Shown piece after piece: positions 525 through 4,822 of a stretch of 6,469 nucleotides of DNA. The notes under the pieces were generated by a model. The model saw nothing but the letters and a program-made list of their open reading frames with translations, searched no databases and had not been told where the DNA came from. Source of the DNA: a virus (lineage: Duplodnaviria; Heunggongvirae; Uroviricota; Caudoviricetes); IMG/VR virus record IMGVR_UViG_2648501150_000029; one strand, 5' to 3'. The position numbers were made by a program, and so were the translations under genes. Position 1 is the stretch's first letter. Every line of letters begins with the position of its first letter.

Positions 525-1040
525 TTAGCGAGGTTTCTTTTTCACCTGAATAGAGTGGTCATGATGGCACTGTTCAGGATGACGACACGCTTCTACTTCT
601 ACACATGCTGAACATAATCCATGTGCTTCAATAACATTATGCCGCAGGGCAAAACCCATTTTTGCCGCCAGCGTATGCATGATGTCTTCCACGCCTTCAG
701 CACATTCTTCTTTCACCGCGCCGCAGCGATCGCAAATAAACATGGCTGAAGTATGGGTGGGCTGATCGAACAGATGACAGAGCACATAACTGTTGGTGGA
801 TTCCACCTTATGCACAAAACCTTGTTCAAGCAGAAACTCCAGCGCGCGATAAACCGTTGGCGGCTTGGCTTGCGGTTCAGCTTCGCGCAGCAAATCAAGC
901 AGATCATAAGCGCTGATAGCGCCATCCTGCAGACTCATCAGGCGCAACACTTCGAGACGCTGTGGGGTCAGGCGCACATTACGCTGTGCGCAGATTTTTT
1001 CAGCCTGCGCTAATAACTCCTGCGTTGTGGTCTTTTCCAT
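525..1040 (-). CDS. zur: Zinc uptake regulator Zur (Fur family), 171 aa
   Basis: Minus-strand ORF; ATG at 1040-1038 gives MEKTTTQELLAQAEKICAQRNVRLTPQRLEVLRLM..., with the Fur-family HTH region and CxxC pairs (CDRCG, CSACVEVEAC), ending ...HDHSIQVKKKPR at TAA 527-525. A GAGG lies 6 nt upstream of this ATG. The 252-aa ORF in the track (to 1283) is an in-frame upstream extension without its own RBS. Confidence 0.9.
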   Translation of the reverse strand: MEKTTTQELLAQAEKICAQRNVRLTPQRLEVLRLMSLQDGAISAYDLLDLLREAEPQAKPPTVYRALEFLLEQGFVHKVESTNSYVLCHLFDQPTHTSAMFICDRCGAVKEECAEGVEDIMHTLAAKMGFALRHNVIEAHGLCSACVEVEACRHPEQCHHDHSIQVKKKPR

Positions 1041-1110
1041 TGGGCACCTCGACAGTGGGGTTAAGAATGTCCTTACTTTACCATAGTTCTCACTTAAACG
1101 CCGAGAACAG
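1041..1110 (-). promoter_or_regulatory. zur 5' leader with ribosome-binding site; the promoter is probably within this stretch
   Basis: On the minus strand the sequence reads ...ctatggtaaagtaaggacattcttaaccccactgtcgaGGTGcccaATG, with a GAGG/GGTG Shine-Dalgarno. A possible -10-like TAAAGT is present but I cannot place it precisely. Confidence 0.3.
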
Positions 1111-1356
1111 GGTGTCATGGCTGTCACATTGCCTGATCGCATATTCGTTATGCTATAGTAGCGCCCCCAATTTACCAGATGCTTAAAAAGTCGCCATGCC
1201 AGCAGAATCACACACTGTTTATCCCGCTTACCGTTTCTCGATTGCCCCGATGCTTGATAGGATGTACCGTTTTTGAAAAACAACTAGTTATACACTTTGT
1301 GGGAGCCTATTGGGAACCTGTTATTCTTAGAAAGCATCATTTGCTCATCACTTCAA

Positions 1357-2084: not shown

Positions 2085-2500
2085 CGGATTATCAGCCATA
2101 CAGGAAAGGAACTGTGCTTGCCCCAACTGGGCCATGCAATCATCTTCATGTGATTTGTAATGATCCTGTTTATTACCCCGTTAACGATTGTTATTGTGTT
2201 TTAGTTGTTAATATTTCTAGTATCAAGGATGGTGTCCCCCACGATCCGTCTTGCGTCTTGAATTCTGGTGATCATCGCTTTATCAAGCATCCAAGTTATG
2301 TTGTTTACGCTGAAGCTATAATTTGGCGAGTGGATAACATGGTTAGAAAGCAGCGATCGGGTGAGATTTCTGTTCATGATGATATGCCAGAAGCTACATT
2401 CAATAGAATTCTGGACGGTTTTGATATCTCTGATGAAGTTACGCCAAAGAACCTTAAATTTAAAAATAAATATTGCGTATCATCTATTGATGATGAGTAA
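2081..2500 (+). CDS. Hypothetical 139-aa protein translationally coupled to the Panacea gene; candidate toxin/effector partner
   Basis: ATG 2081-2083 overlaps the upstream TGA (ATGA, 4-nt overlap) and has no independent SD, which implies coupling. Stop TAA 2498-2500. No family recognised with confidence; there is a weak by-eye resemblance to Kid/PemK/MazF-type toxins (C-x-C-V-L-V-V-N...SYVVYAEAIIWRVDNMVRKQRSGEIS), unverified. Confidence 0.45.
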   Translation: MTDYQPYRKGTVLAPTGPCNHLHVICNDPVYYPVNDCYCVLVVNISSIKDGVPHDPSCVLNSGDHRFIKHPSYVVYAEAIIWRVDNMVRKQRSGEISVHDDMPEATFNRILDGFDISDEVTPKNLKFKNKYCVSSIDDE

Positions 2501-2539
2501 ACAACAGGAATTGTTTCGGTATAACTTCAGGAGTTTTCT

Positions 2540-2713
2540 ATGGAAGATCAAAAAGCAACCAAGCCACAGGTTAAGTTCGACACAATGAAAGCATTCGCAG
2601 GTATGGGTGCTGCTGTTGAAGTTCTGATGAAGGCTGCTCCTAATGCGTTCACTCACGCTACTGTCTCTGGTAAAGAGCAGCAGGGTAAGCTTCGTCGTCG
2701 CAAAGCAGCATGA
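2540..2713 (+). CDS. Small hypothetical protein, 57 aa (MEDQKATKPQVKFDTMKAFAGMGAAVEVLMKAAPNAFTHATVSGKEQQGKLRRRKAA)
   Basis: Not in the ORF track (under 60 aa). ATG at 2540 preceded by AGGAG (2529-2533) at 6 nt spacing; stop TGA 2711-2713; followed within 20 nt by an intrinsic terminator. Basic C-terminal tail. No family recognised. Confidence 0.45.
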   Translation: MEDQKATKPQVKFDTMKAFAGMGAAVEVLMKAAPNAFTHATVSGKEQQGKLRRRKAA

Positions 2714-2732
2714 TCATAGCTGGTGCTTTTTG

Positions 2733-2758
2733 AAAACCCGCCTTTAGGCGGGTTTTTT
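2733..2758. terminator. Bidirectional rho-independent terminator
   Basis: aaaaCCCGCC-ttta-GGCGGGtttttt: a 6-bp GC stem (2737-2742 / 2747-2752) flanked by an A-run and a T-run, so it ends in a U-tract on either strand. It lies between the plus-strand small gene (stop 2713) and the convergent minus-strand excisionase-like gene (stop 2761-2763). Confidence 0.7.
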
Positions 2759-2760
2759 AT

Positions 2761-3042
2761 TTAGTGATGTTCTTTGCCCTTCTGTTTGCTTGTTCTGACC
2801 TGTTCCCACTCGATACGTCCTTCTTCTCGTCTTTTGTCTATGTATTCCGCAAGATCCTGAATATTGATGCAACGTTTTGCTTTTTGTGATGTGCCGATGC
2901 GATATGTTGGAACGGGCAACTTACAAGCGTTTGCTTTTGCTTCTGCCGTGGCTGGACTCATGCCAAAGTACTTTTGGCTAACTGCTGAGAGTTCAATGTT
3001 AGGGGTATTGAATTCAGCCATCAGTAAAAACAAGGTGTTCAT
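2761..3042 (-). CDS. Excisionase-like / PrtN-family small DNA-binding regulator, 93 aa
   Basis: Best start is ATG at 3042-3040, preceded by GGAG at 6 nt spacing; the ORF-track start at 3069 is a GTG with no SD. Product MNTLFLLMAEFNTPNIELSAVSQKYFGMSPATAEAKANACKLPVPTYRIGTSQKAKRCINIQDLAEYIDKRRE... has the MNTLFLLMA N-terminus that I associate with PrtN/excisionase-like prophage proteins. It is the last gene of the prophage operon. Confidence 0.6.
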   Translation of the reverse strand: MNTLFLLMAEFNTPNIELSAVSQKYFGMSPATAEAKANACKLPVPTYRIGTSQKAKRCINIQDLAEYIDKRREEGRIEWEQVRTSKQKGKEHH

Positions 3043-3078
3043 AATTTTCTCCATCAAAACCGGCTGCACCCGGGAAAA

Positions 3079-3651
3079 TCATAATTCTGTGCTGGTGGCA
3101 GGAATTAATTTCTGCCAGATAGCGGAAACATATTTTGCCTGATGACGGGCATCAGCCAGGGCGTTGTGCCGTTCGCCATCGAAAGGCATGTCCATTTTGG
3201 GGTCGAATCCGATGGAACGCCCAAGCGTAACGATCGTGCGTACATCGTGGTCATTCCAGTATGCCCACGGGCAGATTTGTCCTGCTCGCTCATAAGCTCC
3301 ACGTAAAATTACGTTGTCGAAGGTGGCTCCGTTACCCCAGACTTTTAAATATTTCGTATTGTCTGCGTGCCGGTTAATGAAATGATTTAGTTCTGAGAGA
3401 GCATCGCTGATCGACAAAGTATCATCAATACAGATTGCAGCTCGTGCTTCAGGGCTTTGTTTCAACCACCACAGGATGGTATCGCCGTCAGGTGTAGCTC
3501 CTTGCCCCATAGCACTTTCCAGGCTAACAACCGTATAGAATTCTTGTCCGATGTCTCCGGTTTCTGGAGTGAAGAACACCGCGCCAATGGAAACGATCGG
3601 TGCATCCTTATTTTTCCCCATCGTCTCAAGGTCGATCATTAAGTTGTTCAT
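3079..3651 (-). CDS. DEDDh-family (DnaQ-like) 3'-5' exonuclease, prophage-encoded, 190 aa
   Basis: ATG at 3651-3649 with AGAGGTG SD 5 nt upstream; it overlaps the upstream stop (TGATG). N-terminal Exo I motif MIDLETMG (D-x-E) and C-terminal H-x-A-x-x-D-A (ERHNALADARH), diagnostic of DEDDh exonucleases. By position this is the full-length counterpart of the ypdJ exonuclease fragment I recall in K-12 CPS-53. Confidence 0.75.
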   Translation of the reverse strand: MNNLMIDLETMGKNKDAPIVSIGAVFFTPETGDIGQEFYTVVSLESAMGQGATPDGDTILWWLKQSPEARAAICIDDTLSISDALSELNHFINRHADNTKYLKVWGNGATFDNVILRGAYERAGQICPWAYWNDHDVRTIVTLGRSIGFDPKMDMPFDGERHNALADARHQAKYVSAIWQKLIPATSTEL

Positions 3652-4460
3652 CACTTCACCTCTTGTGATGGTTTTGCTGCAAAATACTCGATACCTTTAT
3701 CCCAGATAGATTTTATGGTCGACCACGTGACTGGCACTTTAATTTCAATACGTCCGCTCCCGTCACAGGTATCGCAATCATCATCGCCAAAGCATTCCAG
3801 GCAGCTTATAAACGTAGTTTCTGAAAATTCACCGGATAGCGCCCCCTTAGCGCCGTTCTCGGCTGTTAGTCTCTTCGGCACCATAACCCAACCATCCGGA
3901 GTTACCGGAGAGTTGCCAGACAGTGCGTTCTGCAATCGTTCCAGCTTAACGTATTCCTGAACCCTGTTTCCGTCGCACGCCTGAAGCCATTGCACAGCCT
4001 TTTGCGCATCAGTGTGAAAGGCACAAGTGCGACCGTCATCAAATTGCATTTCGTAGAGGTCAGCAACCTGTTTAAACTGCGTTTGTGGCAACTTGTAAGC
4101 CTGGCTTGCAGGTACGGCACCATAGAGCATGGCAGCGCGGCAGGCGTTCCAGCCTTCATCAAAACCGACTATGCCATTATTTAAAGACGGACGAGCATCT
4201 GGCACCACCGGCACTGGCTTGGCTATATATAGCGGCTGAACATACCAGCCCTTTGATAACCAACTGTCAGCAATGTTTTTACTCCTGGTTATTGCCGGAA
4301 TACCTAAGCCATTGTCTGAATGCAGCCATGCCACCGGATCCTCTTCCAGCGATGCCAGAGCAATTTCATAAGCACGGCGCTCAACATTGTCTCGCACGTC
4401 CATGCTGCTGATTCGTTCTTTGATTTCTTTAATCAGTTCTTTATCGGTAAATGTGGTCAT
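3651..4460 (-). CDS. Hypothetical prophage protein, 269 aa, with C-terminal CxxC / CxxCxGxG zinc-ribbon-like motif (in the YfdT position)
   Basis: ATG at 4460-4458 with GGAGG/GGAG upstream; overlaps the upstream stop (TAATG). C-terminus ...TTFISCLECFGDDDCDTCDGSGRIEIKV contains CLEC and CDTCDGSG (CxxCxGxG, the DnaJ-type zinc-finger signature). Stop TGA 3653-3651. Function unknown. Confidence 0.6.
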   Translation of the reverse strand: MTTFTDKELIKEIKERISSMDVRDNVERRAYEIALASLEEDPVAWLHSDNGLGIPAITRSKNIADSWLSKGWYVQPLYIAKPVPVVPDARPSLNNGIVGFDEGWNACRAAMLYGAVPASQAYKLPQTQFKQVADLYEMQFDDGRTCAFHTDAQKAVQWLQACDGNRVQEYVKLERLQNALSGNSPVTPDGWVMVPKRLTAENGAKGALSGEFSETTFISCLECFGDDDCDTCDGSGRIEIKVPVTWSTIKSIWDKGIEYFAAKPSQEVK

Positions 4461-4822
4461 TATGCTCCAGCCTCCGGTGCTTTTGGCATTACTGCCCAGT
4501 GAGTGATGTTGACGTTTTCAAGGTCCCCGACCTGAAATGTCCACTGCCATTCTCCGGTTTCTTTTTGCCCCCATGTATACCAGAGAGAACGCCAGCCAAT
4601 CAGCCAGCCTTCTCCATTAGCATCAAATAACAGAACACTTTCATTCGCTGGCGGCAGTTCAGCTGACACTGGTATTACTTTGTTTTCCAGTGCTGCACAT
4701 TTAGCTTCAAGCGCATCAAATTTACGCACCAGGTATTCAGCATCCGTTTCATTCACTTTCAGATCTCGCGGTACACATTTCCCGCGAAGAAATCCTTCCA
4801 TTTCGAAAACATTCATGCGCAT
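4460..4822 (-). CDS. yfdS: YfdS-like prophage protein, 120 aa
   Basis: ATG at 4822-4820 with GGAG 8 nt upstream; overlaps the yfdR stop by 10 nt. A second in-frame ATG at 4816 forms an ATGA overlap with that stop. Assignment rests on the yfdQ-yfdR-yfdS order and the matching 120-aa length recalled for K-12; no motif recognised. Confidence 0.6.
   Translation of the reverse strand: MRMNVFEMEGFLRGKCVPRDLKVNETDAEYLVRKFDALEAKCAALENKVIPVSAELPPANESVLLFDANGEGWLIGWRSLWYTWGQKETGEWQWTFQVGDLENVNITHWAVMPKAPEAGA

Follow-up and report, generated by a model that had tools for sequence, protein, structure and literature searches.

The 269-aa protein encoded at positions 3651 to 4460 on the minus strand of the window, that is, of the whole 6,469-nucleotide stretch of phage DNA analyzed here, is a phage accessory protein of an ordinary type, a mosaic "ea"-type early protein, carrying an undescribed domain. 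Judged by sequence comparison, it is a mosaic of four exchangeable cassettes joined at short conserved recombination linkers, and the last cassette is a widespread, unnamed, small acidic domain of about 75 residues that appears to fold autonomously, which we refer to as the LTAENGAK-Cys4 module. We consider it about as probable as not (roughly 0.5) that this module, stapled by zinc, is the protein-binding head of a modular accessory protein from the early operon and captures a host protein.

The preliminary description of this DNA had reported a 269-aa open reading frame with a CxxC...CxxCxGxG motif, and both could be confirmed: the ORF listing gives an ATG-started frame of 269 aa plus stop at 3651..4460 (-), its translation contains FISCLECFGDDDCDTCDGSGRIEIKVPVTW, and C220, C223, C229, and C232 are found in it, in addition to C107, C146, and C162. 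The frame is a real gene. Its translation is coupled to that of both flanking genes (TAATG at 4458-4462, TGATG at 3649-3653), it occurs with 100% DNA identity in many complete E. coli genomes, and the identical protein is present in RefSeq as WP_000206745.1, where it is annotated as "hypothetical protein"; the version of phage SKA5 is 99.6% identical at the protein level and is labeled "Ea22 protein." The gene is part of the leftward early accessory operon in a temperate phage integrated at dusA; in this operon, yfdP, yfdQ, yfdR, and a yfdS-like gene are followed by our gene, an exonuclease gene, and xis; its neighbors encode a 3'-5' exonuclease (Pfam Rv2179c-like 3'-5' exoribonuclease domain) and a 5'-deoxynucleotidase. 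The tail Q-E-V-K-stop (3649..3665, minus strand), which is common to YfdT and the DUF551 variants, holds the Shine-Dalgarno sequence GAGGTGA and the overlapping ATG (3651-3649) of the downstream exonuclease gene.

The region preceding the cysteines had been taken for a single N-terminal stretch of roughly 220 aa, but it actually consists of three separate cassettes. Cassette 1 (aa 1-42; 4335..4460, minus strand) has two predicted helices and is 81% identical to the N terminus of K-12 YfdT and 86% identical to SfV/SfII orf28-29; the DNA homology to CPS-53 (96%) stops at window position 4343, and the K-12 homology stops at about aa 39. Cassette 2 (aa 43-112; 4125..4334, minus strand) is of the EPVAW...PLY...GWNACRAAML type, matches phrog_5117/660/28084, and is deleted or replaced in part in close relatives such as P0011 and P0024. 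Cassette 3 (aa 113-180; 3921..4124, minus strand) resembles segments of EaA, with 52% identity to the segment following the dATP/dGTP pyrophosphohydrolase domain in EaA of the P22-like phage BTP1, 44% to its counterpart in P22, and 85% to Stx-phage EaA/"DUF551" proteins. The linker SGNSPVTPDGW (aa 181-191; 3888..3920, minus strand) is then the recombination joint that precedes either the Cys module or DUF551 in near-identical relatives, and the module itself, cassette 4, occupies aa ~191-262 (3675..3890, minus strand), with a predicted short helix, a β-hairpin, and a C-terminal helix. Separate PHROGs match separate stretches of the protein, and phage matches independently cover aa 1-42, 1-114, 116-205, and 187-258. 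Many close relatives keep cassettes 1 to 3 (aa 1-198 being 95 to 97% identical) but end in DUF551 and lack the Cys module; in the 269-aa protein itself, the Pfam search detected no DUF551 (PF04448). The full-length AlphaFold2 model reached a pLDDT of only 58.7, and of less than 50 in cassette 3, which is too low for the spatial arrangement of the cassettes to be read from it.

It had been suggested that K-12 YfdT might be a truncated form of this protein. The two proteins share only cassette 1 and the last four residues, the remainder being unrelated, and hence YfdT is not a truncation; nor is its C terminus a remnant of the last module helix, since the module HMM does not match YfdT. The kinship in cassette 1 nevertheless suggests another reading, in which the protein is a YfdQRST-type auxiliary that acts through its YfdT-like N terminus together with YfdQ and the DnaA binder YfdR, damping host replication initiation or biasing the lysis-lysogeny decision, while the Cys module is merely one among several interchangeable tails. 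We regard both parts of this reading as possible yet rather unlikely. Apart from the 81% identity of cassette 1, it draws on the genes directly upstream in the window, where yfdQ, yfdR, and the yfdS-like gene show 96% DNA identity to CPS-53, on the finding that multicopy yfdQ plus yfdR plus either yfdS or yfdT inhibits replication initiation in K-12 (PMC4776307), and on two papers in which the lambda and Stx Ea22 proteins favor lysogeny (PMC7093339, PMC8614690). On the other hand, the overlap with YfdT is limited to 42 residues, DnaA pulled down YfdR only, deletion of yfdQRST had no phenotype (PMC4776307), and the Cys module occurs with dozens of different N termini, as well as alone, far from yfdQR genes, so that whatever function the module itself has cannot depend on a YfdQR complex.

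The architecture agrees well with that of the known early-left proteins. Lambda/Stx Ea22, P22/BTP1 EaA, YfdS, and YfdT likewise have their genes immediately upstream of xis/int, in the leftward early operon, and they share a short helical N terminus, exchangeable cassettes, and a portable C-terminal domain; cassette 1 corresponds to the YfdT N terminus, cassette 3 to an EaA segment, and DUF551 is an alternative tail. Unlike in the ea-type proteins described so far, the C-terminal domain of the 269-aa protein is a different and undescribed one. The domain combination, which had been considered unusual for an early-region protein, is not so, as the Cys cassette is routinely shuffled among early-operon proteins of the same class. 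Despite the "Ea22" label in SKA5, homology to lambda Ea22 was rejected (BLASTP E ≥ 2.8, no match to PF13935 [Ead_Ea22] in the 269-aa protein), and PF13935 is carried by 6 of the 142 other module-bearing proteins.

The last cassette stands out by its spread and autonomy. The module was found in at least 1,312 cluster representatives (50% identity clusters, E ≤ 0.001), reaching from Escherichia to Pseudomonas and occurring in both enterobacterial and Pseudomonas phages. Of 348 collected proteins, 302 carry it at the C terminus, 17 internally, and 5 at the N terminus, and in 24 it stands alone. The 60 residues upstream of it fall into at least 68 unrelated groups; the stand-alone proteins, of 76 to 90 aa, are found in temperate phages of Gammaproteobacteria. 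Distant members sit in similar early regions, along with YfdP, DUF2303, a methyltransferase, xis, and int. The family motif, (M/V)PxxLTAENGAKxxLxGEF, then a hairpin with CxxC/CxC...CxxC, and then VPWxxIKxI(Y/W), is present in all its elements at aa 194-252, and these elements are nearly invariant across 84 aligned sequences; conservation is strongest outside the knuckle, in LTAENGAK..L.GEF and W..IK.I (P195, L198, T199, E201, N202, G203, A204, K205, L208, G210, E211, F212, W246, I249, K250, and I252 are nearly invariant). In the AlphaFold2 model of the module (pLDDT 86), strands 33-39 and 57-63 enclose a loop (40-56) that holds the cysteines, and the two 10-residue blocks over model residues 41-60 have mean pLDDT values of 85 and 92. 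No Pfam or NCBIfam model covers the module (the NCBIfam search of the target was empty), its PHROG matches have no assigned function, a sequence search of PDB chains with the whole 269-aa protein gave zero matches, the fold of the whole module is unmatched among solved structures, and a literature search found no publication on it.

These features also bear on whether the gene does anything at all. The reading frame could have arisen as a by-product when a hypervariable region recombined illegitimately, and could have been retained only because it links the translation of the flanking genes; this idea fits the extreme cassette turnover, the Shine-Dalgarno sequence of the next gene in the conserved tail, and the lack of a phenotype when the counterpart cluster is deleted in K-12 (PMC4776307). 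However, a module whose conservation extends from Escherichia to Pseudomonas, with nearly invariant residues besides the cysteines, that also exists as a stand-alone gene, and whose predicted fold is confident makes this account hardly credible.

The putative Cys4 zinc knuckle, C220-x2-C223-x5-C229-x2-C232-G-S-G (3756..3803, minus strand), reads C220LEC223FGDDDC229DTC232DGSG and lies in the acidic loop where the hairpin turns. The preliminary description had placed the motif at the C terminus and written it as CxxC...CxxCxGxG. It does lie in the C-terminal region, but not at the extreme C terminus, as C232 is followed by some 35 further residues, among them a 16-residue helix predicted for the same domain; moreover, only the second knuckle (CDTCDGSG) has the full CxxCxGxG form, while the first (CLECFGDD) is CxxCxG-D-D. 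Each of the four cysteines is at least 90% conserved in the 84-sequence alignment, which reaches 25 to 45% identity, and the motif thus stands above chance. The expected conservation among homologs is borne out down to about 35 to 45% identity, including Serratia and Pseudomonas phages, and the zinc-finger-like character agrees with the structure prediction, in which a β-hairpin, predicted with confidence, bears the four cysteines at its tip. Of 209 distinct modules, 204 (~98%) have a four-Cys arrangement, and the spacing between the knuckles varies from 4 to 13 residues across the family. As for the exceptions, ST64B Sb31 and P0415 have only three cysteines, while P0432 has one and P0421 and P0430 have none, these last three keeping the LTAENGAK scaffold motif. 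That the cysteines are ~98% kept and tend to vanish jointly suggests that the four form a single structural zinc site, and the few members without cysteines indicate that this site would be dispensable for the scaffold. In its secondary structure and pLDDT, the model is in keeping with a knuckle at the hairpin tip, which would probably bind zinc.

The motif had further been likened to the DnaJ-type zinc-finger signature, a likeness that holds in part. When the family profile was run against PDB sequences, the best and only solved structures it found were DnaJ cysteine-rich domains (1EXK, E 0.02; 2CTT, E 0.024). Aligned by hhalign with a DnaJ profile built from 81 sequences, the module profile gave a probability of 76% over 31 columns (DnaJ residues 177-212). 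On the other side, GxG is not conserved, varying in distant members (e.g., CDDCGDAG and CEVCGGEI), and the scores stay below the Pfam DnaJ_CXXCXGXG threshold: PF00684 did not match the query, and only 3 of the 84 members matched at E ≤ 1, the best with 23.9 bits against a gathering threshold of 32.7. The resemblance is local and below family thresholds, as far as profile comparison can tell. The anti-TRAP family PF15777 behaves in a similar way, since 34 of the 84 members match it, all at E ≥ 0.04, one listed score being 11.6 bits against a cut-off of 32. With DnaJ CR and its single-center relatives, such as anti-TRAP and the BSD2 CRD, the module shares adjacent CxxCxG(xG) knuckles between β-strands, and the profile matches to this group are weak but recur. 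DnaJ CR has four CxxCxGxG repeats and two zinc centers, whereas the module family has two knuckles throughout and one putative metal center. Anti-TRAP has one zinc center built from two repeats, and the module would be like it in this respect. Unlike in DnaJ CR, the module knuckle is embedded in the scaffold of LTAENGAK...GEF and the C-terminal helix, a scaffold that in some members survives without the cysteines.

The DnaJ likeness gave rise to the proposal of a chaperone-like role, in which the knuckle would hold unfolded clients or engage DnaK and so modulate the host Hsp70 system. In some sources, relatives do bear names such as "molecular chaperone DnaJ" or "DnaJ-like protein," and weak matches were obtained in BFVD, one of them to a 70-aa mimivirus "DnaJ." Yet every other DnaJ feature is missing, as neither a J domain, nor a G/F region, nor the DnaJ C-terminal substrate-binding domains were matched by Pfam or NCBIfam models. 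Together with the halved number of repeats and centers, scores below the Pfam and NCBIfam cut-offs, the unconserved GxG, top-conserved residues that lie outside the knuckle, and members without cysteines, this makes a chaperone element very improbable.

A nucleic-acid-binding role had been put forward as well. CxxC...CxxC knuckles are frequent among nucleic-acid-binding zinc ribbons, the neighbors are a 3'-5' exonuclease and a 5'-deoxynucleotidase, and in 10 of 142 representatives the module is fused to a dATP/dGTP pyrophosphohydrolase, so the module could be a DNA/RNA regulator or a specificity factor for neighboring nucleases and nucleotidases. Such a role fits poorly with an acidic module (pI 4.5; family mean net charge, -5.9) whose knuckle loop is a run of Asp/Glu. 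A kinship with the homeodomain/zinc-finger protein Ea8.5 of lambda was also rejected (hhalign probability, 1.4%). Moreover, the exonuclease persists downstream where DUF551 replaces the module, showing that the adjacency is positional, and the Pseudomonas and stand-alone members do not have it nearby; a specific tie between the module and the exonuclease was therefore rejected. We consider the zinc-ribbon explanation improbable, and it seems that the module would bind protein rather than nucleic acid.

According to the above-described analysis, the zinc-stapled head may be pictured as follows. The gene product is a beads-on-a-string mosaic whose cassettes recombine at the linkers, with helical N-terminal cassettes that might supply oligomerization or partner contacts. 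At its end, the β-hairpin of a ~75-residue acidic domain would be stapled at the tip by one Cys4 zinc center, formed by two neighboring knuckles that are similar to the repeats of DnaJ CR or anti-TRAP. This site would be structural, and the working surface would be formed by (M/V)PxxLTAENGAKxxLxGEF and by WxxIKxI(Y/W) on the C-terminal helix, allowing the head to capture a host protein soon after infection or induction, most plausibly a DNA-metabolism or defense factor. Because no conserved partner gene of the module was found, no target can be named.

The biological role may be approached by analogy. The C-terminal domains of Ea22 proteins are portable and are thought to bind host proteins (PMC10834534), and Oad2, an EaE-type protein from a similar locus, binds and inhibits the OLD nuclease (preprint 10.64898/2026.07.10.737580). 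Oad2 (HK446 gp27) and Lar are both small anti-defense proteins that, like the 269-aa protein, are modular and encoded next to xis in the early-left operon. The N-terminal cassette of Oad2 is 70% identical to that of the gene adjoining 3651-4460 in the window; the target protein itself has zero sequence similarity to Oad2 and was rejected as its relative, only the neighboring gene sharing the Oad2 cassette. In a single case (P0393), the Lar restriction-alleviation domain is fused to the Cys module. PADLOC returned no match for the target, two relatives, and four neighboring genes. From these analogies, host takeover or anti-defense is most likely the role of the module, with a chaperone or nucleic-acid-binding role less likely. 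More specifically, we tentatively suggest, as a possibility of low probability, that the module represents an undescribed family of anti-defense/host-takeover heads, which would block a host immunity or DNA-metabolism enzyme in the way of Oad2 or Lar and be redeployed by arms-race shuffling.

The definition of the module provides a domain boundary for annotating thousands of "hypothetical" prophage proteins, as well as a compact experimental target of about 75 residues. Since it exists as a stand-alone protein, one pull-down or defense-library screen could give the whole family a function. If the module does prove to be an anti-defense or replication-control head, the xis-adjacent region would further be seen as a reservoir of fast-evolving host-interference modules.

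The target protein is encoded by a 269-codon ORF with an ATG start at 3651..4460 on the minus strand. Its product appears in E. coli genomes as the "hypothetical protein" RefSeq WP_000206745.1. Three findings establish that this is a real gene. Many complete E. coli chromosomes carry it with 100% DNA identity, the isolated phage SKA5 has a 99.6% identical counterpart (labelled "Ea22 protein"), and it overlaps both neighbors: its start codon shares TAATG with the stop of the gene upstream, and its stop shares TGATG with the start of the exonuclease gene downstream, whose Shine-Dalgarno GAGGTGA lies within the last codons of the target. Cysteines occur at residues 107, 146, 162, 220, 223, 229, and 232. 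The Cys motif in the preliminary description is real, reading ...TTFISC220LEC223FGDDDC229DTC232DGSGRIEIKVPVTW... in translation (motif at 3756-3803, minus strand), but it is not at the extreme C terminus, as about 35 residues still follow, and of its two knuckles only the second is a complete CxxCxGxG.

The gene belongs to a prophage. On its left side the window has yjbJ and zur (268-1040) and a 5' dusA fragment (1196-1258, plus strand; MPAESHTVYPAYRFSIAPMLD...). The remainder is a prophage end, and because the fragment lies between zur/yjbJ and the prophage genes, dusA is the site of integration. The 252-aa ORF at 525-1283 (minus strand) is an over-extension from an upstream TTG; Zur proper starts at MEKTTTQELL... 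and has 171 aa (525-1040). Strain WP4-S18 carries a DUF2713 gene between zur and the dusA fragment, which is absent from the window, and the identity to this strain is broken at 1108-1242. On the minus strand, the operon runs YfdQ (DUF2303), YfdR (HD-family 5'-deoxynucleotidase), a YfdS-like DUF551 protein, the target, a 3'-5' exonuclease (Pfam Rv2179c-like 3'-5' exoribonuclease domain), and a PrtN-type excisionase; this is the leftward early accessory region, which corresponds to lambda exo-xis, to the "ea" genes of P22, and to yfdQRST of K-12 CPS-53. On the plus strand at the prophage end, a Panacea/SocA-domain protein (1512-2084; Pfam E value 2.2e-19) overlaps by 4 nt a 139-aa ORF (2081-2500) that has no match in Pfam or PADLOC and whose sole match is a function-less PHROG; the two resemble a toxin-antitoxin pair of the PanA type whose toxin is unclassified.

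Rather than a 220-aa region of no known kind fused to a finger, the target is a mosaic. Separate stretches are matched by PHROG profiles (residues 1-114, 1-94, 1-46, 65-126, 181-227, and 225-262), and in tblastn against phages, SfV/SfII share with it only residues 1-42, several Stx phages only 1-114 or 119-198, P22/BTP1 EaA only about 114-205, and a Serratia phage only 187-258. Dozens of the closest database relatives are 95 to 97% identical over residues 1-198 and have a DUF551 end in place of the Cys segment, while other close relatives keep this segment and have middle parts inserted, deleted, or replaced. These piecewise matches, together with tail swaps at short conserved linkers (...AMLxxG... 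and SGNSPV(T/I)PDGW) that form the joints, divide the target into four cassettes: residues 1-42, 43-112, 113-180, and, after a linker (181-191), cassette 4 (about 191-262), which is followed by the tail PSQEVK. Because cassette 4 is routinely shuffled, the domain combination is not the unusual one first supposed.

K-12 YfdT (101 aa) and the target align only over target residues 1-42, at 81% identity, and at the terminal QEVK; the 59 residues in the middle of YfdT are unrelated, lack Cys, and gave no match to the HMM of cassette 4. The window and CPS-53 share 96% DNA identity from 6469 to 4343, where the homology ends. Judged from these alignments, YfdT is a different cassette combination and not a truncated target, which answers a question raised earlier. 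The Q-E-V-K-stop tail (3649-3665, minus strand) is common to the target, YfdT, and the DUF551 variants, and it probably survives every cassette exchange because the exonuclease gene has its Shine-Dalgarno GAGGTGA and overlapping start codon there.

As a domain, cassette 4, here called the LTAENGAK-Cys4 module, is autonomous and occurs widely. With residues 181-269 as query, phmmer returned at least 1,312 proteins at E ≤ 0.001 (243 at E ≤ 1e-30) from 1.84 billion cluster representatives, and profile searches that started from the versions in Serratia and Pseudomonas phages found relatives at 25 to 55% identity, including many stand-alone proteins of 76 to 90 aa (for example, METNTVMMPRELTAENGAKAALMGEFSIQFPIKCCCDGEDGDCEVCGGSGEYTQTVNVPWTTIKEIYRAAVKHLGC). 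The module stands at the C terminus in 302 of 348 collected proteins, makes up the protein by itself in 24, is internal in 17, and lies at the N terminus in 5; the 60 residues upstream fall into 68 unrelated groups. In 142 module representatives, the Pfam partners are dATP/dGTP pyrophosphohydrolase (former DUF550; 10), DUF551 (9), Ead_Ea22 (6), Lar (1), and ASCH/DUF3850 (1), and most of the rest have no Pfam match. Distant members occupy equivalent genomic places: DUF2303 ... module protein ... exoribonuclease-xis-int in Serratia phage OS31, beside a TraR-like gene in Pseudomonas phage pAN, in a prophage with YfdP-DUF2303-methylase ... int, and in a phage-like early region with SbcCD-like and methyltransferase genes. 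In pAN gene 47 (2968-3516 of the collected locus), the module is N-terminal and precedes an unrelated domain of about 95 residues; this gene comes straight after a gene for a C4 zinc finger of the TraR/DksA type, which corresponds to lambda orf73. The idea that the target is a functionless by-product of recombination is contradicted by the Escherichia-to-Pseudomonas conservation and the stand-alone genes, and we consider it the least probable of all.

In an 84-sequence module alignment, K205 and W246 are invariant, and P195, L198, T199, A200, E201, N202, G203, A204, L208, G210, E211, F212, C220, C223, C229, C232, I249, K250, and I252 are at least 90% conserved, so the Cys motif is indeed kept among homologues. 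The signature is (M/V)PxxLTAENGAKxxLxGEF, 7 residues, CxxC (or CxC), an acidic loop of 4 to 13 residues, CxxC, and VPWxxIKxI(Y/W); the "GxG" after the second knuckle is lost in distant members (CDDCGDAG, CEVCGGEI). The four-Cys arrangement occurs in 204 of 209 distinct module sequences, a sample biased to close relatives. Two proteins (P0421 and P0430) have no Cys and one (P0432) has a single Cys, all three retaining the flanking motifs; three-Cys modules are found in ST64B Sb31 (2434-3267 of its locus; first Cys to Phe) and P0415 (second Cys to Arg). It seems that Cys loss tends toward all-or-none, as a single shared metal site would give. The Cys-poor members keep the flanking motifs, which shows that the putative metal site is an add-on to the scaffold and not its core.

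The AlphaFold2 model of the module, built with the 84-sequence alignment, has a mean pLDDT of 86. In its numbering (residue i is protein residue i+180), an ordered N-terminal segment with LTAENG is followed by a short helix (24-28), a strand (33-39), a loop with the four Cys (40-56), a second strand (57-63), and a helix (66-81); lying between the two strands, the cysteines are predicted to sit at the tip of a β-hairpin. The full-length model is poor (pLDDT 58.7), with two predicted helices in cassette 1 and cassette 3 not resolved. Foldseek matched the module model to nothing in the PDB (best E 1.3) or among the viral predicted structures of BFVD (best E 0.07), and the target matched no Pfam or NCBIfam family. 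The earlier recognition of a DnaJ-type pattern is sound for the knuckle pair, which locally resembles the DnaJ CR in two comparisons: when all PDB sequences were searched with the family profile, 1EXK (E. coli DnaJ CR, E 0.02) and 2CTT (human DNAJA3 CR, E 0.024) ranked first, and hhalign with a DnaJ profile built from 81 gammaproteobacterial proteins gave 76% probability over 31 columns, at DnaJ 177-212 (repeats 3-4 and the following strand). The domain as a whole falls outside the DnaJ CR family: it has two knuckles versus four and one possible center versus two, scores below all thresholds, comes with no J, G/F, or C-terminal domains, and has its best-conserved residues outside the knuckle. 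Members whose loop is longer and whose knuckles are both complete CxxCxGxG (P0388 and P0407) give sub-threshold matches to DnaJ_CXXCXGXG (23 to 24 bits, cutoff 32.7), BSD2_CRD, anti-TRAP, and NCBIfam DnaJ models; across the 84 members, weak matches number 34 for Anti-TRAP and 3 for DnaJ_CXXCXGXG. Given these differences from the DnaJ CR family, a chaperone role is very unlikely.

The reading we rank first, with a probability of about one half, is that the module is a generic protein-binding head for host interference. One structural zinc would staple the hairpin, the invariant LTAENGAK/GEF/W-IK-I surface would form the working face, and the N-terminal helical cassettes may supply oligomerization or partner contacts, as is described for Ea22 proteins (PMC10834534, PMC8614690). 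The module is acidic (pI 4.5; family mean net charge, -5.9), and this, with the Asp/Glu run in the knuckle loop, suggests that the ligand would be a protein and makes nucleic-acid binding improbable. An auxiliary role like that of YfdT, with host-physiology control of the YfdQRST or Ea22 type, is a separate and rather doubtful alternative; multicopy yfdQ plus yfdR plus yfdS or yfdT inhibits K-12 replication initiation (PMC4776307), and Ea22 is described as favoring lysogeny (PMC7093339). Within the protein-binding-head reading, an anti-defense role is a tentative specific version, by analogy with Oad2 (HK446 gp27), which adjoins xis in a similar locus and is reported to bind the OLD defense nuclease and inhibit it directly (2026 preprint 10.64898/2026.07.10.737580). 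The N-terminal 40 residues of Oad2 are 70% identical to the YfdS-like gene directly upstream of the target, and one module-bearing protein carries a Lar restriction-alleviation domain. The YfdS-like neighbor (4460-4822, minus strand) is itself mosaic, with a DUF551 domain at its C terminus.

Mosaic accessory proteins of early operons with a portable C-terminal domain are a known kind, and the target is one of them. The module domain itself appears to be undescribed, since it has no Pfam or NCBIfam model, its PHROG matches carry no function, no solved fold matches, and our literature searches found no paper on it. This finding would not surprise a phage biologist; its value lies in annotation and in giving experiments a compact target, and the natural three-, one-, and zero-Cys variants are ready-made controls for the importance of zinc.
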